Shown: positions 3 to 29,362 of the stretch, in pieces
Layout of the letters: every line of letters begins with the position of its first letter
Numbering within the stretch: the stretch's first letter is position 1
Virus record (IMG/VR): IMGVR_UViG_3300027278_000003
DNA length: 64,000 bases
Reading direction: 5' to 3' (one strand)
DNA from: a virus
Lineage: Duplodnaviria; Caudoviricetes
Made by a program: the position numbers and the translations under genes
Notes under the pieces: model-generated
The model's input: the letters and a program-made list of their open reading frames with translations, nothing else
What the model was told of the DNA's origin: nothing
Database searches by the model: none

Positions 3-938
3 TCTGGTAAATGTAAGGTTATAATAGATACTGTATTAGAAGGATTTTTTTTAACAGCGTGGCGGTTCATACATCATATATTTGACAGTGAGCCAAGTAG
101 CATAATATGGTTAACTGGTGATTATAAATTAGCATACAAAAACGATATAGGATACGACCTCAGAACCATAAATTATTGGGAACGTCACATGAGTGAGCAA
201 AATCAATCAGGTGATGAAATGCGAGAGTTTTTAAAAGAAATATCAACGCCGCCAAATCCAAATGGCACTCGTTTACACTATTGCACATATTATAACAGAA
301 GAATACGAAATCACCGCGTGGACATGATGATTGAAATGTTTCATCGTGAACAAACAAAAAATATGATTTGGTCGTGGGGCGGCAACGTTGAAAAGTATGC
401 AATGCATATACGCAGCCCAAGATACAGAAACTATATAATAAACAAATTTGGCAATGAGTATATAAATGCCGCAAGCGATGTTCTTGCTTGGGGTAATCGA
501 CAATCACATCCATCCACGACCGACAATTTATCTGTTAACTTATGCCAAATATATAATTTTGACCACATACGAAATACATATTATCAATTTGTAGTAGAAA
601 CTTTTGCATCAGATGGGATACATACATTCCTGAGTGAAAAGACATTTAAAGCGTTTCTGTTTAGACAACCATTTGTGATGTGGGGAGATCCGAACACGGT
701 TTCCGAACTTCGCAAGTCTGGATATAAGACATTTGATCATTGGATAAATCATAGCTACGATACTATAGAAAACCCAGATGATCGAAGACAGGCTATTGCG
801 GATGAAATCGTGAGATTGAATTCTATACCAAAACATGAATGGACATCAATGTTAATTGAAATGCAAGAAGAATTGAACCACAACTATCACCATTTGGTTG
901 ACACCGCACACAACCGCTATTCGTTGAAATTAGAGTAA
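3..938 (+). CDS. Glycosyltransferase-like protein, 5'-truncated by the window edge
   Basis: Frame +3 is open from base 3 through the called ATG at 189. The motif SEKTFK...QPFVMWG...GYKTFD...SYD resembles phage GT10/fucosyltransferase-like proteins. Confidence 0.5.
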   Translation, partial: SGKCKVIIDTVLEGFFLTAWRFIHHIFDSEPSSIIWLTGDYKLAYKNDIGYDLRTINYWERHMSEQNQSGDEMREFLKEISTPPNPNGTRLHYCTYYNRRIRNHRVDMMIEMFHREQTKNMIWSWGGNVEKYAMHIRSPRYRNYIINKFGNEYINAASDVLAWGNRQSHPSTTDNLSVNLCQIYNFDHIRNTYYQFVVETFASDGIHTFLSEKTFKAFLFRQPFVMWGDPNTVSELRKSGYKTFDHWINHSYDTIENPDDRRQAIADEIVRLNSIPKHEWTSMLIEMQEELNHNYHHLVDTAHNRYSLKLE

Positions 939-7768: not shown

Positions 7769-8137
7769 ATGGCTAGAAAAACCACAACTCTCATGCCAAA
7801 CAGTGGCGTAGAACTAAACGTAACTGGCGACCCAGTACCGGGCGATAGCTATTATGGTTATACTGACGGTATTCACACCGTTGCAATCTATTGTCAAAAT
7901 CTAACAGGACGTGTCAAAGTACAAGGTACACTTGCAACCAATCCCGGTGAAGGCGATTGGTTCGATATCTTGTTAACTGGTATGCCGTACAAAGATTATA
8001 CAGGGTTTACTGGAGTTGAAGGTTTTACTTTCATAGCGAACCTAGTTTACCTAAGAGCAATTTTAGACCGCGATTCACTTGGCATAACAGACGTAACAGG
8101 CGCAGGTTACATTGATAAGATTTACTTGAATTACTAA
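7769..8137 (+). CDS. Putative virion structural protein
   Basis: AAGGA RBS; in a late operon ahead of fibre genes; beta-rich. Confidence 0.55.
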   Translation: MARKTTTLMPNSGVELNVTGDPVPGDSYYGYTDGIHTVAIYCQNLTGRVKVQGTLATNPGEGDWFDILLTGMPYKDYTGFTGVEGFTFIANLVYLRAILDRDSLGITDVTGAGYIDKIYLNY

Positions 8138-8150
8138 AGGACAGAGATAA

Positions 8151-11100
8151 ATGAGTATTAACGCACAACCGTTTGCACCCACGTTCAAATTGGTGGGGAA
8201 CCTACAGCAAGATCAAGTCTTGGTATTTGATGTTAGCGAAAATGCATTTGTCAATACTACAACAGGCTTAGGTGGCGGCGTAGCATTGATAAGCGATGCA
8301 CAAAATCTTGGTACAGGACATGGCATTTTCGAAAGTATTGCTGGCTCATCCATGCAATTCAAAAGCATTATTGCTGGTTCAAATGTAAACATTGTAGACA
8401 ATGGCGTTGCACTTGTTCTTAATGTTGACGTTACTGAAACTGTACAAACTGGTACAAACGTTGGCACTGGTACACCTGTATTCAAGCAACTAAATGTTGA
8501 CAATCAATTAGAATTCAAAAGCATTGCAGTTGGTTCAGGTCTGACCCTAGCAGACAATGGTTCTACTCTAACTATCTCACTAAACGCAACAGCGGGTGGT
8601 GTTCTCGTTCCGTCAAACAATCTGTCCGATTTGACTGACGATGCGGCCGCCCGTGTAAATCTAAGTGTATACTCAAAAGCAGATTCAGATGCAAAGTTCT
8701 TTAAGCTAGACAATCATAACATCCCATCAGTAGATAACAGATGGGATATCGGTTCTCCTGAAAAACGCTTCAATGACGTTTACGGTGAAACATTCCATGG
8801 CACTGCAATCCGTGCAGAGGAACTTGCTATATCTGGTCAACTAGGTAACGTGTTAATGCACAACGGTACGAAATGGGTGGCATCTCCAGACTTTGCACAA
8901 AAATCATATGTTGATGCGCAAGTTGCGGCGGCGGTAAGCGGCGGTAATATTGATCTAAGTGGATATGTAACCGATGCAGAACTAAGTGCAGCAATCGCAG
9001 GTGTAACTCACCCAGCGGCAGATTGGAATACACTTCTAAACAAACCAACACTATTCGATGGACAATATTCATCATTGACTGGTGCTATTGAAGGGCTATC
9101 AAGCGATACAGGTACGAATACACTCACATTGAAAGCGGGTTGGAATTTAATCCCAGAGGCAGATAGTCTACAAAGTCTAGGTTCCCCAACAAATCGCTTT
9201 ACAAACATCTATCTAGACAATTCGACTATTTCAATTGGCGACAATAGCCTAGAAGCAGACGCGAATGGAACTCCTCTATGGAACAGTGAGGCGCTTGCGA
9301 CACGCAACTATGTCGATACAGCGATTGCAAACATTTCAACTGGTGGTTCGGTCGATCTAACTAACTACTACACAAAAGGTGAAGTTGATGCATTGATCCC
9401 AACTACATTCTCAGGCGACTACAACGATCTAATCAATACACCAGCGATCCCATCACTTGCAGGTTATGCGACACAGCAATGGGTTATTGATCAAGGCTTT
9501 ATGACAGGCGATAGTGATAACCAATCGTTGACACTAACTGGTACTGTTCTATCAATTTCAAATGGTAATTCGGTTGATCTAGCCGCAATTGATACAAACG
9601 TTGATCTAACTAACTACTACACAAAAGGTGAAGTAGATGGATTAATTCCAACTGTATTCAGTGGTGACTACAATGATCTAACTAACACCCCATCTATCCC
9701 AGAAACACTGCAAGATTTGACTAATGTTTCAAACGTTGCGCCAGCAGATGGTCAGCATCTTGTTTATGTAGCCTCGACGGGTCTTTGGACTCCTAGTGCA
9801 TCATCGACTGGTTCAGGGACAGGCTATTCAGATGCAGACGCACGTGCAGCAATTTCAGGTGGTACAGGTCTATCATACAACAGCACAACTGGTGTTATGG
9901 CTCTTAACGCTGAAATCGGTCAGCTTACAAATGTTGATACTGCTGGCATACAAAACGGTCAAGTTCTAAAATGGAACGGTTCTAGTTTTGTCCCTGCAAA
10001 TGACACAGTTCTAACATCAACTGATCAACTTCCAGAAGGTACAACAAACAAGTGGTGGACAGATGCAAGATTTGATTCACGTTTTGCAGCGAAATCAACA
10101 AGTGACCTAGCAGAAGGCACAAATCTATACTTTACAGATGCACGTGTTGATGCACGACTTGCAACACAATTGGTTGCGGGTACAAATATCACAATCACAA
10201 ACGGTGCAGGTGGCGTTAGAACAATTTCAGCAGCGACAACTGATCTGAGTGCGTATGCAACAACAGCATATGTAGATAGTGCAGTATTCAGTGGCGTATA
10301 CGCAGACCTAACTGGTAAACCAACACTATTCTCAGGTGATTATAACGATCTAACTAACAAACCTACACTGTTTGATGGTGCATATACATCACTAACTGGG
10401 ACACCAACAATCCCAGCAGATGTATCAGACTTGACAGATACGCAAAATCTATTAGGTGGTTCAACATACGGCGATAGTGATGTTCTTGCACTAAACAATG
10501 GCGGTCTAGAACACATGATCCCAAGTGCAGACGTTACATATGATTTGGGTAGTGCAACATACAGATGGCGTGATTTATACCTAAGTGGTAACACAATTCA
10601 CATCGGTGACGCAACACTGTCTAAGGATGCAGACGGTCTAAAATATAATGGTTATGATCTACAAGACTTCAACAACTTGAAGAATAAACCTGATCTAAGT
10701 AACCTAACAGACACAAACGTTAATAACGTAAACCGTCCCGTAACATATGCAGCACTTAACACACAACTTGAACCATATATTACTGCGGATGAACTAACAG
10801 CAGCACTTGCTGGCGTTACACTATTCTCTGGTGACTACAATGATCTAACTAACAAACCAACTATACCAGCAGATATAAGTGATTTAACTGATATTACTGG
10901 TCTTCTTGGAGCAGCAACAGTTGATCTAACTAACTACTACACAAAAGGTGAAGTAGATGCATTGATCCCAACTGTGTTCAGTGGTGACTACAATGATTTA
11001 ATCAATAAACCAACGATCCCAGACGTTACTGGTTTCGCAACAACTACGGATGTAGCAAATGCAGTAGCGAATATCAATACATTCTCAGGATCATACAACG

Positions 11101-24652: not shown

Positions 24653-24724
24653 ATGACATACGAACTTGTTACATCGCAAACATCAACAACACTGGGTAAT
24701 AACCCAGCGAATGATGCTGTGTGA
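24653..24724 (+). CDS. Putative attenuator leader peptide MTYELVTSQTSTTLGNNPANDAV
   Basis: CATAAATA at 24618, AAAGGA RBS, ATG 24653, TGA 24722-24724 immediately before an antiterminator arm. Confidence 0.7.
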   Translation: MTYELVTSQTSTTLGNNPANDAV

Positions 24725-24725
24725 C

Positions 24726-24799
24726 AGGGCGTAGACGATAACTAGACTAAAAGTTACGAAACGCCCTCAGAAAAAAATCTGAGGGTTTTTCATTTTTTA
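24726..24799 (+). promoter_or_regulatory. Attenuator: overlapping antiterminator and terminator
   Basis: AGGGCGT (24726-32) can pair with ACGCCCT (24761-67). CCCTCAGA (24764-71) alternatively pairs with TCTGAGGG (24778-85), followed by T tracts. Confidence 0.75.
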
Positions 24800-25585: not shown

Positions 25586-25661
25586 TCCCAGATAGCTCAG
25601 TCGGTAGAGCAAATGACTGTTAATCATTGGGTCGGCGGTTCGAGCCCGTCTCTGGGAGCCA
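25586..25661 (+). tRNA. tRNA-Asn(GUU)
   Basis: Full cloverleaf, loop CT-GTT-AA, encoded CCA. Confidence 0.95.
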
Positions 25662-25666
25662 ATATT

Positions 25667-25756
25667 GGAGGGGTGGCAGAGTGGTTGATTGCACCGGTCT
25701 TGAAAACCGGCGTAGGCGAAAGTCTACCGTGGGTTCAAATCCCACCCTCTCCGCCA
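25667..25756 (+). tRNA. tRNA-Ser(UGA)
   Basis: CCGGT-CT-TGA-AA-ACCGG, long variable arm, G73, CCA. Confidence 0.95.
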
Positions 25757-25761
25757 AATTG

Positions 25762-25787
25762 GCCCTTATAGCTCAGTTGGTAGAGCA
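25762..25787 (+). pseudogene. 5' fragment of tRNA-Thr fused to an HNH remnant
   Basis: GCCCTTATAGCTCAGTTGGTAGAGCA is identical to 26050-26075; no anticodon or T arm follows. Confidence 0.75.
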
Positions 25788-25980
25788 ACGAGGTTATTCA
25801 TGTGAATGTTGTGGTATAAGCGAATGGCAGGGTAAACCAATCGTTTTAGAATGCGATCATATTGATGGCAATCACAAAAACAATACACCTGAAAACTTAC
25901 GATTAATTTGCCCAAATTGTCACAGTCAGACGGAAACCTATAAAAACAAAAACATAGGTAAAGGTAGATCGTATAGATAA
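25777..25980 (+). pseudogene. HNH endonuclease C-terminal fragment
   Basis: CECCG...LECDHIDGNHKNNTPENLRLICPNCHSQ zinc-finger/HNH; no RBS or normal start. Confidence 0.75.
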
Positions 25981-26049
25981 AATTTAAATTTTAGCGTATT
26001 AGGAACAACTTTTCGTTCTAAATGCTAAATAATTATATACGAAGATAAT

Positions 26050-26167
26050 GCCCTTATAGCTCAGTTGGTAGAGCAGTTGATTTGAAAGCACACGCGATAA
26101 CGATAGGTTCACAAGGTGTGTTTTCGTAATCATCAGGTCCGCGGTTCGAGTCCGTGTGAGGGCACCA
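26050..26167 (+). tRNA. tRNA-Thr interrupted by a 42-nt insertion in the anticodon loop (probably UGU)
   Basis: 118 nt; removing 26085-26126 gives a 76-nt cloverleaf with loop TT-TGT-AA, acceptor GCCCTTA/TGAGGGC, A73 and CCA. Confidence 0.8.
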
Positions 26168-26177
26168 TTCTTCTTAT

Positions 26178-26262
26178 GCGGATATGGCGAAATTGGTAGA
26201 CGCACTAGATTTAGGTTCTAGCGGGGTAACTCGTGGGGGTTCAAGTCCCTCTATCCGCACCA
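26178..26262 (+). tRNA. tRNA-Leu(UAG)
   Basis: CTAGA-TT-TAG-GT-TCTAG, long variable arm, A73, CCA. Confidence 0.93.
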
Positions 26263-26362
26263 AAAAATTTAATACCTCTGTGTCCAAATCATCATGAAAT
26301 GGTTCACAGTAAATATAAAAATGAAGTTACGCCTTTAATAGAAAGGCAAATTTCAGAAAAGT

Positions 26363-26436
26363 GGGGAATTGGTGAAGCGGGATCACGCTAGATTTGCATT
26401 CTAGAATCACGAGTTCGATTCTCGTATTCTCCACCA
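26363..26436 (+). tRNA. tRNA-Ala(UGC)
   Basis: Loop TT-TGC-AT; G3:U70 wobble and A73 alanine identity elements; CCA. Confidence 0.85.
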
Positions 26437-26455
26437 AACATATACTGGAAATTGT

Positions 26456-27196
26456 ATGAAGTATCGCTTGCCGTTCACAAAAGAAACTACATATACTAGA
26501 CATGGCTGGTTTCAATATGCTATGGTACTAAGTTTACCATTTTCTTTTTATTTTTTAACATTAGAACAATGGGTATACAGTCTTTTAGTCGGCTATGTGT
26601 TAGCTATAATTGGTCAAATTGTAGGTCACCATAGATATTTCAGCCATAGAAGTTTTAAACTAAACATCTTTTGGCACTATGTTTTATGTTACTTAACAAC
26701 AGTATTATCTATCGGTAGTGTATTAGAGTGGAGAAGAATGCATCTAGCGCATCACAAATACTCAGATACACAATATGATCCACATTCACCAACGTATAAA
26801 GGTATTTTAAAAGTATTTTTTATATCATGGTTTGATTACCCACAGGGTGTGGCTATCTCCGAAGAATCTGAAAAACTTAAATCAGAAAAAGGTATAGTAT
26901 TCTTTCATACATACTATGTATATATTATACTTTTTCATATTGCAATAGTTTCATTGATTGATCCTAAGTTGCTTTATGCTTTATACTTTTTCCCTCCGTT
27001 TCTTGCGTTAAGTATGGGTTCACTAGTGAATTCTCTTTTACACAATGAAAATGGACCGAAAGACAACATATTACTTGCATTTATTGCAGGAGGCGATGGT
27101 TATCATGCAATTCATCACGAAAAACCGTATTTGGCAACCTATCCTTTCCCAGATTTAGCAGGAATGATCATATCATTGATTAAAAAGAAAGAATAG
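26456..27196 (+). CDS. Fatty acid desaturase (delta-9-like)
   Basis: His boxes HHRYFSH, HLAHH and HAIHH; several TM segments. Confidence 0.88.
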   Translation: MKYRLPFTKETTYTRHGWFQYAMVLSLPFSFYFLTLEQWVYSLLVGYVLAIIGQIVGHHRYFSHRSFKLNIFWHYVLCYLTTVLSIGSVLEWRRMHLAHHKYSDTQYDPHSPTYKGILKVFFISWFDYPQGVAISEESEKLKSEKGIVFFHTYYVYIILFHIAIVSLIDPKLLYALYFFPPFLALSMGSLVNSLLHNENGPKDNILLAFIAGGDGYHAIHHEKPYLATYPFPDLAGMIISLIKKKE

Positions 27197-27213
27197 TATA
27201 AATAAACGTATAA

Positions 27214-27288
27214 GCGGGCGTAGCTCAGTGGTAGAGCGTCACCTTGCCAAGGTGAGGGTCGTGAGTTCGAATCTCATCGCCCGCTCCA
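27214..27288 (+). tRNA. tRNA-Gly(GCC)
   Basis: TCACC-TT-GCC-AA-GGTGA, U73, CCA. Confidence 0.95.
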
Positions 27289-27366
27289 AATTCCTAGCAT
27301 ATGATTTGACTATGCCATTCGGGTAACATACTTCCCGTTGAAACAATCACAAAAGTCACTGCTTTA

Positions 27367-27442
27367 GGGAGATTAGCTCAGTTGGTAGAGCGTCTCGTTT
27401 ACACCGAGAATGTCAGGAGTTCGAGTCTCTTATCTCCCACCA
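27367..27442 (+). tRNA. tRNA-Val(UAC)
   Basis: TCTCG-TT-TAC-AC-CGAGA, CCA. Confidence 0.95.
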
Positions 27443-27496
27443 TTTCACTTTCTCAAATCAGATAAATACCGTATAAGTTCTTTATGGGAGAAAGTC

Positions 27497-27757
27497 ATGA
27501 TCAAGCGTACAGGTTTAGCAAAAAGAGTGTCGGCGAAAGCGGCTCCTACTAAAAACGTATCTACACGTAAAAAAACAATTACAAAAACTGTCGAAGCAGA
27601 GGCTGCGCCAATGTTTACATTTAACATCACTGCTGGTGTTGAAAATCTAGGTTCAGTTATTGAAGCAAACGAAGAAGCAGCACTTGCGAAAGCAAGAAAG
27701 AAATTCGGCGCGCCATTAAATTATGGTGTGTTCCAATATACAGCAAAGCGTGTATAA
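27497..27757 (+). CDS. Small basic protein (86 aa)
   Basis: GGGAG RBS before ATG 27497; GATAAATA at 27461. The longer track ORF starts inside tRNA-Val. Confidence 0.6.
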   Translation: MIKRTGLAKRVSAKAAPTKNVSTRKKTITKTVEAEAAPMFTFNITAGVENLGSVIEANEEAALAKARKKFGAPLNYGVFQYTAKRV

Positions 27758-27897
27758 TTAAAGTTTCCAAACGTCAGTTGACGGCGTGACTGTTAGGAGA
27801 GACTAACATTTAAACTACATTTATGTGACGTAACCTTACTTAGAGTATGAAGTGCGTATCACCGAAACTTCCCAAGACATTCTAAATTTTTAAACAC

Positions 27898-27974
<77 letters not shown>

Positions 27975-27983
27975 TTTTTAATT

Positions 27984-28011
27984 GCGGTTGTAGCTCAGTT
28001 GGTTAGAGCAT
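27984..28011 (+). pseudogene. Truncated tRNA 5' fragment
   Basis: GCGGTTG-TA-GCTC-AGTTGGTTA-GAGC-AT, then an abrupt end. Confidence 0.65.
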
Positions 28012-28019
28012 TAAATAAA

Positions 28020-28094
28020 GGACTGTTGGTTTATCGGTTAGAATTCTCGCCTGTCACGCGAGGGAGACGGGTTCGATTCCCGTACAGTCCGCCA
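28020..28094 (+). tRNA. tRNA-Asp(GUC)
   Basis: CTCGC-CT-GTC-AC-GCGAG, G73, CCA. Confidence 0.9.
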
Positions 28095-28166
28095 TTAATA
28101 AGATATACTATGACAAATACCGGTACCGTTTGTGGAAAGTGATAACAGTTATAGTATATCTTTTAT

Positions 28167-28241
28167 GGCCCGTTCGTCTATCGGTTAGGACGCTAGGTTT
28201 TCAACCTAGAAAGAGGGGTTCGATTCCCCTACGGGCTACCA
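28167..28241 (+). tRNA. tRNA-Glu(UUC)
   Basis: CTAGG-TT-TTC-AA-CCTAG, CCA. Confidence 0.93.
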
Positions 28242-28279
28242 ATCATTATACTAAATATCATCATGAAAGATATATCATC

Positions 28280-29362
28280 ATGAAAGATTTAAAACAGTTG
28301 CAAGAACACTACGGATGTTCTCTGCCTTTTATCAACCAATACGTAGTAAAAGACCCAAAAGGTTACTCTGTTAAGCCTTGTTGCATGTCAACTGTTACCC
28401 CACCAGAGTATGTTGATACCTATAAAGAATTAAAAAATCATAAAATTATAGAAGAAACCCAAAATGCTTTTCTAGAAAAGCGTTGGCCTTCCACCTGTAC
28501 GATTTGTAAACTAGACGAAAGCGCCGGAGAACGCAGCTACAGGCAGAGCATGTGGTACAGACATATAAACCACTTTGAAACCAAAAAATTAGTATGGGAT
28601 CTACGGTTTGATAACGTTTGTAATCTAAAATGTATAATGTGTAACCCTAGTAACAGCAGTAAATGGAACGAAGATTTAGACATTTACAACCAATTCAATG
28701 ATACAAATATTGTAGAACATTTTACCCGAAAAACATCAGACATTGACGACATATTAAATGAATGCAGAAACACCGCAATTGAGATAAACCTATTGGGCGG
28801 TGAACCATTTTATAGCAAGAATACGTTTGATTTCATAGAACGACTTTCGGCTAATGTATGGAATACTGAAAATACTGAATTAATATTCGTCAGCAATGGG
28901 AACGGGTTGAACAACAAATGGATAGAATTGTTAAAGCGTTTCCGAAAAATATCAATAATGTTAAGTTTAGATGGTGTAGGTGAGTTAGCAAACTACATAA
29001 GATACCCAACCGATTGGGATCAATATTTAAAAAATGTTGACATTATAAAAGAGAACAATTGGAATCTAGCGTTTAATATAACTTGGAGTGCGTTAAATCT
29101 ATATCAACATAATGAAATCATAGAGTTTTGTAAACAAAATCATATAAGACGCAGAAATAACATTTTACATAATCCAAATTATCTAGGCTTTAATGCACTA
29201 AAAAATTTGAAGCCTATAGGTGTTAAAAACATAGATTACTACATAGAAAACCACCACGAGTACGATGATACTCTAAATAAAAAATTAAAAAACTATCTAG
29301 AAACATTGGACGCCAAACGAAACTTGAATAGTAAAAATTTAATGCCATGGTGCTGGGAATGA
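28280..29362 (+). CDS. Radical SAM protein with an N-terminal SPASM/twitch-like Cys cluster
   Basis: CNLKCIMC, GGEP, PCC and CTIC motifs; start reassigned to ATG 28280 because the track start lies across tRNA-Glu. Confidence 0.85.
   Translation: MKDLKQLQEHYGCSLPFINQYVVKDPKGYSVKPCCMSTVTPPEYVDTYKELKNHKIIEETQNAFLEKRWPSTCTICKLDESAGERSYRQSMWYRHINHFETKKLVWDLRFDNVCNLKCIMCNPSNSSKWNEDLDIYNQFNDTNIVEHFTRKTSDIDDILNECRNTAIEINLLGGEPFYSKNTFDFIERLSANVWNTENTELIFVSNGNGLNNKWIELLKRFRKISIMLSLDGVGELANYIRYPTDWDQYLKNVDIIKENNWNLAFNITWSALNLYQHNEIIEFCKQNHIRRRNNILHNPNYLGFNALKNLKPIGVKNIDYYIENHHEYDDTLNKKLKNYLETLDAKRNLNSKNLMPWCWE

Follow-up and report, generated by a model that had tools for sequence, protein, structure and literature searches.

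The window analyzed here, a stretch of 64,000 nucleotides from IMG/VR record IMGVR_UViG_3300027278_000003, comes from the 342-kb genome of a marine phage whose sole tRNA-Thr gene (26050-26167) is split within the anticodon by a 42-nt hairpin. The question raised by this locus is whether the hairpin is removed from the transcript as an intron, has destroyed the gene, or serves in an RNA that is used unspliced. As far as we know, tRNA introns of bacteria and their viruses are thought to be removed by self-splicing only, and we know of no protein-dependent tRNA splicing in bacteria or phages. Short non-ribozyme introns in phage tRNAs were reported in 2019 and left unexplained (PMC6784885).

Anatomy of the interrupted gene

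The Rfam tRNA model (RF00005) aligned to 26050-26164 end to end, over model positions 1-71, with a score of 53.2 bits (gathering score 29). The alignment contained one insertion only, in the anticodon loop; the D and T loops were conserved and the cloverleaf was complete. ARAGORN missed the gene in default mode and, in intron mode, called tRNA-Thr(tgt) with a 42-nt intron. A 321-nt "intron" from ARAGORN was rejected: the two parts that it connects are a duplicated 5′ tRNA fragment and the 3′ half, and the anticodon arm that it implies is impossible.

The 5′ exon of tRNA-Thr(UGU), placed by the Rfam alignment and by identity to uninterrupted tRNA-Thr genes, occupies 26050..26084 on the + strand. 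In register 35|36 it contains the 5′ strand of the acceptor stem, the D arm, the 5′ strand of the anticodon stem, U32, U33, U34, and G35; in register 34|35 it ends at 26083. The 3′ exon (26127..26167, + strand; starting at 26126 in register 34|35) contains U36, A37, A38, the 3′ strand of the anticodon stem, the variable loop, the T arm, the 3′ strand of the acceptor stem, A73, and an encoded CCA. The 42-nt insert, delimited by comparison with 80 uninterrupted and 12 cellular genes, lies on the + strand at 26084-26125 (register 34|35) or 26085-26126 (register 35|36). In register 34|35 it is exactly the closed hairpin, composed of a 5′ arm (GAAAGCACAC, 26084-26093), a 22-nt loop (26094-26115), and a 3′ arm (GTGTGTTTTC, 26116-26125), all on the + strand. 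One of the ten stem pairs is G-U, and the loop is predicted to contain a weak 3-bp inner hairpin. This anatomy is that given in the preliminary description (10-bp stem, 22-nt loop, 42 nt in all).

In the predicted fold, the anticodon arm and the insert form a single 16-bp helix from U29 to the loop, with one bulged U (26127, which is U36) and with U34 paired to G26126. The fold energy of −18.5 kcal/mol (z = −3.9) was equaled by 1 of 200 shuffles. The anticodon stem of this model runs on into the insert as one long helix, so that the anticodon of the precursor would be hidden: the primary transcript is predicted to have no readable seven-base anticodon loop, its anticodon bases being paired and becoming readable only after removal of the insert. 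An origin of the insert from an IS200/IS605- or MITE-like element was considered and is not supported; no second copy was found in the 342-kb genome, and there is no target duplication beyond one G.

Presence in independent data

The oddity of the feature, and nothing else, favors the explanation that it is an assembly or sequencing artifact. Four assemblies (three from ENA and one from JGI), made from different samples with different assemblers, were 100% identical across 6.7 kb including the insert, and a 557-nt Logan contig from DNA run X2 covered 25726-26168 without a difference. In addition, 81% or more of the words sampled from 25700-26500 were present in each of 13 marine DNA runs. A homologous insert in contigs of another phage, from five further JGI samples, also argues against an artifact, to which we assign a negligible probability. 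The possibility of an assembly artifact, which the preliminary description had raised, gave way to the agreement of the four assemblies and the Logan contig, and the insert is genuine sequence. RNA contigs from metatranscriptome runs X20 and X23 corresponded to 25654-25898 and 26294-26444, which flank the insert; they include neither the insert nor a spliced junction, and they neither support nor oppose its expression. No RNA run was among the listed holders of a 161-nt stretch, a result with no bearing on expression either way.

Uninterrupted homologs and the splice register

With the 42 nt removed, the joined exons were identical at 76/76 positions to cellular tRNA-Thr(UGU) genes found in 12 alphaproteobacterial genomes. 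Because 80 uninterrupted phage tRNA-Thr genes share the exact 5′ half, the insert could be placed at 34|35 or 35|36, both of which give UGU; the ambiguity between the two registers is one G, found on both sides of the insert. The preliminary description had listed the anticodons that would result from excision after positions 33, 34, 35, 36, and 37 as CGU, UGU, UGU, UGA, and UGA, and had considered the Thr products most plausible. All five follow from the sequence, and the matches of the 12 cellular genes and 80 uninterrupted homologs to the joined exons single out Thr(UGU) as the relevant product. Cuts in register 34|35 would be blunt and would leave conserved G...C intron ends.

The insert was absent from all 80 of the arrays with the same tRNA. 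Pattern scans of IMG/VR, with the window's own record left out, gave 0 matches for this tRNA carrying any insert of 30-60 nt, 0 for tRNA-Ser/tRNA-Thr adjacency, and 0 for an insert pattern based on the arms. The 22-nt loop sequence had 0 matches in metagenome contigs. A megablast search for close relatives among GenBank phages returned isolated tRNA matches only, and searches for synteny gave no match with a desaturase-like neighbor protein and only 33% relatives with a radical-SAM neighbor protein.

A distant relative with a homologous insert

A homologous insert was found in a second phage lineage, called L223 here, known from metagenome contigs of six JGI samples, five of them spanning the interrupted tRNA-Thr gene. 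Proteins shared between the two lineages were 41-72% identical. The L223 insert lies at the same site and is again exactly 42 nt long. Its 3′ arm was identical at 10/10 positions and its 5′ arm at 6 of the 9 nt that follow the shared G, whereas the loop differed at 17/22 positions and showed no sequence conservation. The three changes in the helix were one-sided, with pairing kept in each lineage; the helix has no double compensatory change, because only two lineages are known. UGU arises in L223 from register 35|36 only, register 34|35 giving the anticodon UAU.

The exons of the two lineages differed at 14/76 positions, 13 of them in stems, and pairing was preserved in all of the stem changes. 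Six pairs were altered on both sides, and 0/500 shuffles reached such preservation. Stem-preserving change is the way in which a functional tRNA evolves, in contrast to the scrambled loop of the insert. Judged from the sequences, this covariation suggests that the gene has been kept functional and is probably not a decaying pseudogene. The preliminary description had foreseen an unconserved insert if the gene were a pseudogene; the retention of a homologous insert in a distant relative counts against that outcome. One contig of the relative (L224/L229) carried four substitutions, with the D stem and one acceptor pair broken.

The hairpin-insert trait recurs in this group, since the relative has a second interrupted gene, a class II tRNA-Leu whose anticodon loop contains a 47-nt hairpin insert. 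No uninterrupted homolog of this tRNA-Leu was found that would fix the insert site. If it is read as UAA, a 1x1 internal loop would lie between the two cuts, and the resulting end would be a 1-nt 5′ overhang instead of a 3′ stagger of 2 nt.

The tRNA array and its codon usage

The array (25586..28241, + strand) contains, in order, tRNA-Asn, tRNA-Ser, a tRNA-Thr fragment with an HNH reading frame, the interrupted tRNA-Thr, tRNA-Leu(UAG), tRNA-Ala, tRNA-Gly, tRNA-Val, tRNA-Pro, a second fragment, tRNA-Asp, and tRNA-Glu. The preliminary description had linked the interrupted tRNA to dominant ACA codons, and this dominance was borne out: ACA makes up 51% of the Thr codons in 201 long ORFs of the phage and is the sole Thr codon (5/5) of a leader ORF upstream of the array (24653..24724, + strand), which is followed by a terminator-like hairpin (24763-24786). 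Other tRNAs of the array also fit top codons, for example CTA and TCA.

The tRNA-Thr fragment (25762..25787, + strand) is a copy of tRNA-Thr positions 1-26, identical at 26/26 positions, that ends after the D arm and is fused to the HNH frame. The second 5′ fragment lies between the Pro and Asp genes (27984-28010). Such 5′ tRNA fragments break after the D arm at 25787, at about 28010, and in L020, and may hint indirectly at endonuclease cutting of the insert-free gene.

The HNH homing-endonuclease ORF (25777..25980, + strand) is short, encoding 67 aa from a TTG at 25777 or 73 aa from a TTG at 25759. Its CxxC...DH...N...CxxCH core is intact and it matched Pfam HNH and, at 1e-26, PHROG HNH families; its N-terminal part is shorter than that of its relatives (91-203 aa), and because it is short the protein may be inactive. 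The ORF is single copy in the genome. It ends 70 nt upstream of the interrupted tRNA-Thr gene, and together with the Thr fragment it spans the region 70-290 nt upstream. It is 54% identical to a 91-aa HNH protein of the L223-type phage, and in L226 an HNH homolog lies 2.8 kb from the interrupted tRNA-Thr gene. Around the 80 uninterrupted genes, 730 kb of sequence contained one distant HNH match only (35% identical). The association of HNH gene and insert may represent a single event, because both lineages share ancestry.

T4 SegB and T5 F-Tfl are homing endonucleases of phage tRNA gene regions. Likewise, genes homologous to the HNH ORF lie in or directly beside tRNA arrays of T4-like, Yersinia, Gordonia, and Agrobacterium phages, one of them annotated as F-TflIV; in these other arrays no hairpin-split tRNA beside the endonuclease gene has been reported or was seen, in contrast to the present one. 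The HNH ORF and the 5′ fragment of tRNA-Thr, neither of which the preliminary description had noted, suggest a DNA-level reason for the insert.

Candidate processing enzymes

The preliminary description had proposed a search for RtcB, Rnl/Pnk, or EndA-like genes, and only the second of these was successful. The phage encodes a T4 Rnl1-type ligase (PF09511, 91.6 bits; phrog_562, 234.9 bits over nearly its full length). The protein that precedes it (177 aa) matched AAA_33 and the PHROG polynucleotide-kinase family, and a 207-aa protein by the kinase had only a match (7e-9) to a PHROG "phosphohydrolase" family and no Pfam match. No RtcB and no EndA (PF01974) were found in the phage genome; nor does it encode an RNase III. 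EndA is, to our knowledge, not an enzyme of bacteria. Five genomes that carry the identical tRNA-Thr represent candidate host lineages because of that identity; RNase III was present in 5/5 and RtcB in 1/5.

Rnl1 and Pnk are common in large phages, where they act as a defense against anticodon nucleases, and the presence of Rnl1 here is therefore not specific. In T4, host tRNA that has been cut in the anticodon loop by PrrC is healed by Pnkp and sealed by Rnl1. The likeness to the present phage lies in the Rnl1-family ligase, in the adjoining kinase-like protein and putative phosphohydrolase, and in the task of Rnl1, which seals a break in the anticodon loop of a folded tRNA, the same last step as is proposed here. 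The T4 break is damage inflicted by a defense nuclease on a host tRNA, whereas in the present phage the maturation of its own tRNA would include the break as a programmed step.

A proposed maturation pathway

The insert is probably a small protein-spliced intron, since an equally long hairpin occupies this site in a distantly related phage. The reading that we prefer, and to which we give an even chance from the sequence comparisons, is that the phage tRNA-Thr(UGU) gene works and that its 42-nt insert is a hairpin intervening sequence, a small intron whose removal depends on proteins; Rnl1 of the phage would seal the exons, host RNase III may make the cuts, and immunity to the HNH endonuclease is perhaps why the insert has been retained. 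At the hairpin base, both strands of the helix would be cut by an endonuclease, after which U34 would have to be rejoined to G35, or G35 to U36, by a ligase. The most likely ligase is the T4 Rnl1-type enzyme of the phage, which would form a heal-and-seal set with the Pnk-like kinase and the putative phosphohydrolase beside it. Host RNase III would be the favored nuclease, although we hold this weakly. Cutting after 26084 and 26126, as register 35|36 requires, would produce an offset of two base pairs and give both products 2-nt 3′ overhangs; the 3′-OH and 5′-phosphate ends produced by RNase III could be sealed directly by Rnl1.

In our own reading of the geometry, the RNase III step would fit L223, in which the only register that yields UGU, 35|36, is the one with an RNase III-type stagger. 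The RNase III model is fragile, in that the modeled helix has only 16-18 bp and the tRNA-Leu insert of L223, read as UAA, does not fit its stagger. Points noted against splicing in general are the rarity of the insert, the L224/L229 contig with its broken D stem, and a phage without EndA, RtcB, and RNase III.

A probable reason why the insert persists in the DNA is that the neighboring HNH homing endonuclease of the array finds its target interrupted, in parallel with what is called "collaborative homing." Reportedly, the cyanophage psbA intron, which lacks an ORF, spreads in this way with the free-standing endonuclease F-CphI. As in that system, a free-standing homing-endonuclease gene lies right by the interrupted gene, and carriers would be immune if their cut site contained an insert; here the HNH protein is short, and its DNA target is only a candidate.

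Alternative explanations

Intron-mediated maturation must be weighed chiefly against the reading that the gene is dead: that the anticodon was lost to an insertion, such as an endonuclease repair scar or a small mobile hairpin, that the transcript is never spliced, and that the phage uses the identical tRNA-Thr(UGU) of its host. The phage has no splicing machinery of a known kind, and its array is scarred by the duplicated tRNA-Thr 5′ fragment, the short HNH ORF, and the second fragment at 27984-28010. The D stem is damaged in one contig of the relative. Loss of the phage tRNA-Thr would also be cheap, because this tRNA is present in the candidate host lineages, and selection within the phage cannot be measured because its copies are all clonal. 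Against this, a pseudogene so old should have broken stems, yet with 14 exon differences and a loop diverged at 17/22 positions every stem change retained pairing, with six pairs compensated on both sides. Furthermore, the length of the insert was held at exactly 42 nt and its helix was held, and the gene is the sole tRNA-Thr of the phage and fits both its main Thr codon and the ACA-rich leader. We regard a dead gene as rather unlikely, although it deserves serious consideration.

Still less probable, in our estimation, is use of the RNA unspliced, either as a tRNA-shaped decoy or sponge for a host anticodon nuclease, a tRNA-modifying enzyme, or RNase III, or as a precursor that is cut and not rejoined, yielding tRNA halves. 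Conservation of the tRNA body and helix with a loop free to vary would be expected of a decoy, as would an anticodon that the predicted helix hides completely. Phage tRNAs have been proposed to counter tRNA-targeting defenses (PMC10264068), a role with which a decoy would agree. However, nothing points specifically to a target, a decoy would have no need of exons identical to the host tRNA down to the acceptor stem and the encoded CCA, and codon usage and the leader favor a role in decoding.

The chance that the insert is an intron of a known kind (a degenerate group I intron, an archaeal or eukaryotic bulge-helix-bulge intron, or two small self-cleaving ribozymes) appears very small. Its position beside U34 is what we take to be the classic site of the group I intron of bacterial tRNA-Leu(UAA), and in register 34|35 the 5′ exon ends in U. 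Group I introns have a catalytic core, P3-P9, of roughly at least 200 nt, and the U that ends the 5′ exon and the G that ends the intron never coincide here in any register. The preliminary description had set group I introns aside by size, and rightly so: 42 nt are too short for the core, and no Rfam intron family matched at the gathering score or at E<=1. Its second exclusion, of a bulge-helix-bulge junction, also stood, since the predicted fold has a single bulge of 1 nt where that motif requires two 3-nt bulges 4 bp apart, and the phage is without EndA.

Comparison with known systems

Like the present insert, group I introns interrupt an anticodon loop and must be removed at the RNA level if the gene is to survive; they are ribozymes, for which this insert is five times too small. 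Bulge-helix-bulge introns of tRNAs resemble it more in form, being short, located in or by the anticodon, and paired with the anticodon region, with a 5′ cut nearer the loop than the 3′ cut; splicing by proteins, as proposed here, would be a further likeness. They differ in having two 3-nt bulges rather than one bulged U and a predicted 2-bp offset, in being located at 37|38 rather than 34|35 or 35|36, and in depending on EndA/Sen with RtcB or Trl1, of which EndA and RtcB are missing from the phage.

The 23S rRNA intervening sequences are bacterial stem-loops excised by RNase III and common in Alphaproteobacteria (PMC8708148). They too are extra stem-loops that extend a native helix of a structured RNA and occur sporadically among relatives, but they are 100-200 nt long and the rRNA pieces are not rejoined (PMC8708148), whereas a tRNA cut in the anticodon must be religated. 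The 2-nt 3′ overhangs typical of RNase III would fit the modeled geometry in register 35|36 only.

The closest precedent is provided by the Lak megaphages, and the statement in the preliminary description that interrupted tRNAs have been noted in huge phages is on record there. Their tRNA genes contain introns called "enigmatic," with a splicing mechanism not known (Devoto et al. 2019, PMC6784885). As described there, the inserts were identical across cohorts, were unclassified by Rfam, were recognized against insert-free copies, and include one in tRNA-Thr(TGT) (PMC6784885). Over-long tRNA genes, insert-free homologs (80 here), and the lack of an Rfam class are shared with the present case. 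The Lak Tyr insert (37-129) is 93 nt long, the likeness to our 42-nt plain hairpin being one of description alone, and a tRNA is predicted to lie within the Lak Thr insert. The Lak phages infect Prevotella and use an alternative genetic code, and the host here would be a marine bacterium similar to alphaproteobacteria. Relative to the Lak cases, the present locus is set apart by a split within the anticodon triplet and by a diverged homolog with conserved arms and a free loop.

Implications

The locus is a tractable case, since the boundaries of the insert are known to within one base and the mature product would be a known cellular tRNA. The diverged homolog separates what is conserved (site, length, and stem) from what is free (the loop), and the genome contains named candidates both for sealing (Rnl1, the kinase, and the phosphohydrolase) and for the evolutionary driver (HNH). 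In its broadest form, the idea would be that of programmed, protein-only tRNA splicing in a bacterial virus, in which a double-strand-specific nuclease (host RNase III or some phage enzyme) and Rnl1 heal-and-seal remove an intron kept as immunity to HNH, and on this logic the tRNA introns found in Lak and other huge phages would be accounted for as well; we consider this general form doubtful. If the splicing is true, Rnl1-type "repair" ligases would gain a second, constructive role, homing endonucleases of tRNA arrays would be linked to intron-like immunity, and real phage tRNAs would be missed by default bacterial tRNA finders. If the gene is dead, the locus would still document clearly how endonucleases drive turnover in the tRNA arrays of phages.

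Reality and position of the insert

The phage contig holding the window is 342,181 bp long with 39% G+C, comes from marine metagenomes, is 92% complete by CheckV, and carries 28 tRNA genes and one tmRNA. Its sole tRNA-Thr gene (26050–26167), in the array at 25586–28241, is split within the anticodon by a 42-nt hairpin, of which no second copy was found in the phage genome. Positions 26050–26164 matched the Rfam tRNA model over its full length (53.2 bits; gathering score 29) with a single insertion, in the anticodon loop. ARAGORN skipped the gene by default and, in intron mode, called a tRNA-Thr(tgt) whose intron is 42 nt long. On re-reading of the sequence, the preliminary description proved exact in its arms, loop, and coordinates.

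Presence in public assemblies was traced through a neighboring 246-aa protein, recorded in 63 blocks. Four assemblies that were fetched (three from ENA and one from JGI, with MEGAHIT- and SPAdes-style names and contigs of 221–342 kb) were 100% identical to the window across 6.7 kb, insert included. A Logan contig from DNA run X2 covered 25726–26168 with zero differences, and 13 marine DNA runs each contained 81% or more of the words sampled from the insert region. The insert is genuine DNA, and the assembly artefact considered earlier is contradicted by the agreement of these contigs through it. The phage population is clonal, so there was no variation to work with.

Uninterrupted homologues were sought in IMG/VR with an exact 30-nt match to the 5′ half. 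This probe matched 80 loci, most of them phage tRNA arrays with as many as 23 genes. At every locus the tRNA-Thr(UGU) is uninterrupted and its loop reads UUUGUAA, and four loci matched the window exons throughout. The joined exons were also identical at 76 of 76 positions to a gene in 12 species-representative alphaproteobacterial genomes, many labelled Micavibrio, which points to an alphaproteobacterial host. From these phage and cellular homologues we conclude that the insert is exactly 42 nt and follows either U34 (register 34/35; 26084–26125, which coincides with the closed hairpin) or G35 (register 35/36; 26085–26126). The one-base ambiguity arises because a G occurs on both sides of the insert; either way the window product is UGU, one of the Thr products favored earlier and that of the 80 phage loci and 12 cellular genomes.

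The anticodon arm and insert fold as a single 16-bp helix that starts at U29 and ends at the 22-nt loop, U36 (26127) being the only bulge (–18.5 kcal/mol; z = –3.9). Because U32-A38, U33-A37, U34-G26126, and G35-C26125 are paired in it, the anticodon is buried. This single-bulge fold rules out a bulge-helix-bulge intron, and 42 nt is too short for a group I core; no other Rfam family matched the insert region even at E ≤ 1. The preliminary description had dismissed both intron classes, correctly.

A diverged homologue in a relative phage

When metagenomes were scanned for this anticodon stem with 25–55 nt of any sequence separating its halves, two contigs, L223 and L224, were returned, and a protein look-up found the L223 phage in contigs of six JGI samples (L225–L230), five of which span the gene. 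This relative has several proteins in common with the window phage (41–72% identity), and its tRNA arrays are arranged differently. Its interrupted tRNA-Thr (L223:11592–11709; Rfam 55.3 bits) is followed by tRNA-Leu(UAG), as in the window, and answers the earlier call for orthologous inserts: the site is the same, the insert is again exactly 42 nt, and its 3′ arm is identical at 10 of 10 positions. In the 5′ arm three positions changed: pairing is retained at two (G-U to A-U, C-G to U-G), and a mismatch arises at the third; the base facing U34 is G in the window and A in L223 (U-G to U-A); and 17 of 22 loop positions differ. Of the 76 exon positions, 14 differ between the two phages; one of these lies in the T loop, and the acceptor and T stems account for the other 13. 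All 13 stem differences preserve pairing, six pairs having both bases replaced, and the stem-pairing values were matched by none of 500 shuffles. In L224 (the same as L229), from one sample, four substitutions are clustered at tRNA positions 2–16 and the D stem is broken.

In L223 an A precedes U36, so that UGU can come only from register 35/36, in which both genes stay Thr. Register 34/35 gives blunt excision and conserved intron ends (G...C), and would make the L223 product UAU, an Ile-type anticodon; this is not absurd, since tRNA-Ile(UAU) is present in many of the phage arrays.

A class II tRNA of the relative (L223:9675–9806, also in L225, L227, and L228; Rfam 37.4 bits) has a 47-nt anticodon-loop hairpin. 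The only sensible joined loop, CUUAAAA, places the insert after U34, and the product is probably Leu (UAA); excision would imply cuts on either side of a 1x1 internal loop. About 430 nt upstream of this tRNA is a gene for a GIY-YIG endonuclease. With inserts in both tRNA-Thr and tRNA-Leu, anticodon-loop hairpins are recurrent in this phage group.

More broadly, IMG/VR contains further phage tRNA-like genes with 20–50 extra bases. Two with plain anticodon-loop hairpins, scored as tRNA by Rfam at 55–57 bits, are a Phe(GAA)-like gene in L091 (about 667–761, minus strand; 22 extra nt after position 32) and L108:1050–1155 (33 extra nt). A recurrent family of 115–127 nt, found at L012:6304–6877 and about 40 other loci (e.g., L002, L015, L036, L039, and L105), has a large insertion, a 43–56 nt element (a hairpin, then conserved ACAGCAA), between the D arm and anticodon region (Rfam 44–47 bits); L012 has four in succession. 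In a second recurrent family (L025, L073, L090, L103, and L112) the conserved structured element CCCTCA.GG..AAGG.CC.AAA.GC.GGGA..AA replaces the anticodon region. On the phage contig outside the window, 137854–137949, a 96-nt "tRNA-Phe(aaa)" by ARAGORN with no Rfam tRNA match, has a 7-bp stem and 21-nt loop instead of an anticodon arm and adjoins tRNA-Ser(ACU). Both phages have an amber-suppressor tRNA (CUA) followed by a small gene (L223:10191–11020; contig 132336–132811) whose products are 72% identical.

An HNH endonuclease beside the gene

A short HNH ORF (25777–25980, or from 25759; Pfam HNH; PHROG 1e-26) ends 70 nt upstream of the interrupted gene. Its catalytic and zinc motifs are intact, whereas its N-terminus is short (67–73 aa vs. 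91–203 aa in relatives), and it is fused to a copy of tRNA-Thr positions 1–26 (25762–25787; 26/26 identical). Homologues lie in or right beside tRNA arrays of a T4-like coliphage, Yersinia phage fHe-Yen9-04, Gordonia phage Forza, and Agrobacterium phage Atu_ph07. In the L223-type phage, a 91-aa homologue (54% identical) lies 2.8 kb from the interrupted gene, and 730 kb around the 80 uninterrupted genes held a single distant match (35% identity). In collaborative homing, a free-standing endonuclease lies beside a gene whose insert blocks the endonuclease's site; the layout here is the same, and a block of this kind may be why the insert is there. Because the two insert carriers share ancestry, the association may be a single event.

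Three tRNA 5′ fragments, one stopping at 25787, one at about 28010, and one in L020, all end just past the D arm and look like repair scars. The second is an orphan (acceptor strand and D arm; 27984–28010) between tRNA-Pro and tRNA-Asp; in L020, an IMG/VR locus, the tRNA-Thr 5′ fragment fused to the HNH ORF in the window recurs (27 nt) and directly precedes a complete, different tRNA-Thr(UGU). Read in the HNH frame, the spacer and fragment at 25756–25800 encode a peptide with K-L-x-L...L-x-E...G-Y spacing, matching the region before the HNH core of homologues (6/13 identical to a Synechococcus phage DSL-LC03 protein). The ORF may use tRNA-derived sequence as its N-terminus, or the resemblance may be chance. 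A 193-aa HNH ORF of the relative (L223:7596–8177) runs into tRNA-Ala (8095–8169), and an unannotated HNH-like frame in Forza (L205) overlaps the start of tRNA-Tyr; such overlaps seem common in these arrays.

Proposed splicing and alternative explanations

The enzymes listed for a search earlier were found in part: RtcB, EndA, Rnl2-type ligase, and also RNase III are absent from the phage genome, and an Rnl1 and a Pnk-like kinase are present. The T4 Rnl1-family ligase (376 aa; PF09511, 91.6 bits; phrog_562, 234.9 bits) has two proteins encoded directly upstream: one of 177 aa, AAA_33/polynucleotide-kinase-like, and one of 207 aa that falls in a PHROG "phosphohydrolase" family. Ligase, kinase, and phosphohydrolase would make up the heal-and-seal set of T4 anticodon-loop repair. 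Of five genomes that carry the identical tRNA-Thr, every one has RNase III and only one has RtcB.

An endonuclease, proposed to be RNase III, would cut both strands at the hairpin base, and Rnl1 would reseal the anticodon loop. In register 35/36 the 5′ cut would fall between pairs 35:76 and 36:75 and the 3′ cut after the partner of U34; this 2-bp offset would give both products 2-nt 3′ overhangs, and Rnl1 could join the 3′-OH and 5′-P ends without healing. As a precedent, the removal of intervening sequences from 23S rRNA by RNase III comes nearest; it is frequent in Alphaproteobacteria and occurs without religation (PMC8708148). Two points weaken the proposal: the helix is short, and to excise the L223 tRNA-Leu insert the cuts would have to lie on either side of a 1x1 internal loop rather than in a 2-bp stagger. 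For these two reasons we regard RNase III plus Rnl1 as doubtful and rank it below splicing by proteins in general, which has about an even chance.

The rival explanation is that the tRNA-Thr gene is dead. Perfect stems around a scrambled insert loop are not expected of a gene that died before the lineages split. If instead the insert moved between two tRNA-Thr alleles, it would be a site-specific mobile element long resident in intact genes. Under either history the interrupted RNA is most likely still in use, and an RNA in use must have its hairpin removed. RNA-library contigs identical to the phage, for which DNA carry-over is possible, covered only 25654–25898 (tRNA-Ser, the 5′ fragment, and the start of HNH) and 26294–26444, neither reaching the insert or junction. 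We consider a dead gene unlikely, yet a contender; a functional, protein-spliced mini-intron is the most likely explanation, at evenly balanced confidence. The observation in the preliminary description thus stands, and its interpretation is supported in part only.

Among published cases, the tRNA introns of Lak megaphages come closest; they were termed enigmatic and described as the first for phages, a tRNA-Thr(TGT) is among the genes concerned, and no mechanism was proposed (PMC6784885). No later work on the mechanism of phage tRNA introns was found in the literature searched. Four features set the window insert apart from the Lak introns as described: its size and form, a plain hairpin; its location within the anticodon triplet; its conserved homologue; and the accompanying candidate enzymes and endonuclease. 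We rate the split tRNA-Thr as belonging with this known, unexplained kind of phage tRNA intron.

After tRNA-Glu in the array, the 17-nt unit ATATCATCATGAAAGAT is tandemly repeated (28255–28288), and its 12-nt core recurs after tRNA-Leu (26288–26299). The ACA dominance noted previously holds: ACA accounts for 51% of the Thr codons across 201 long ORFs, and for all five Thr codons of a leader ORF upstream of the array (24653–24724), which is followed by a terminator-like hairpin. The array tRNAs Leu(UAG) and Ser(UGA) likewise fit the top codons CTA and TCA. Without being proof, the ACA-rich codon use and leader of this phage fit a working tRNA-Thr(UGU).
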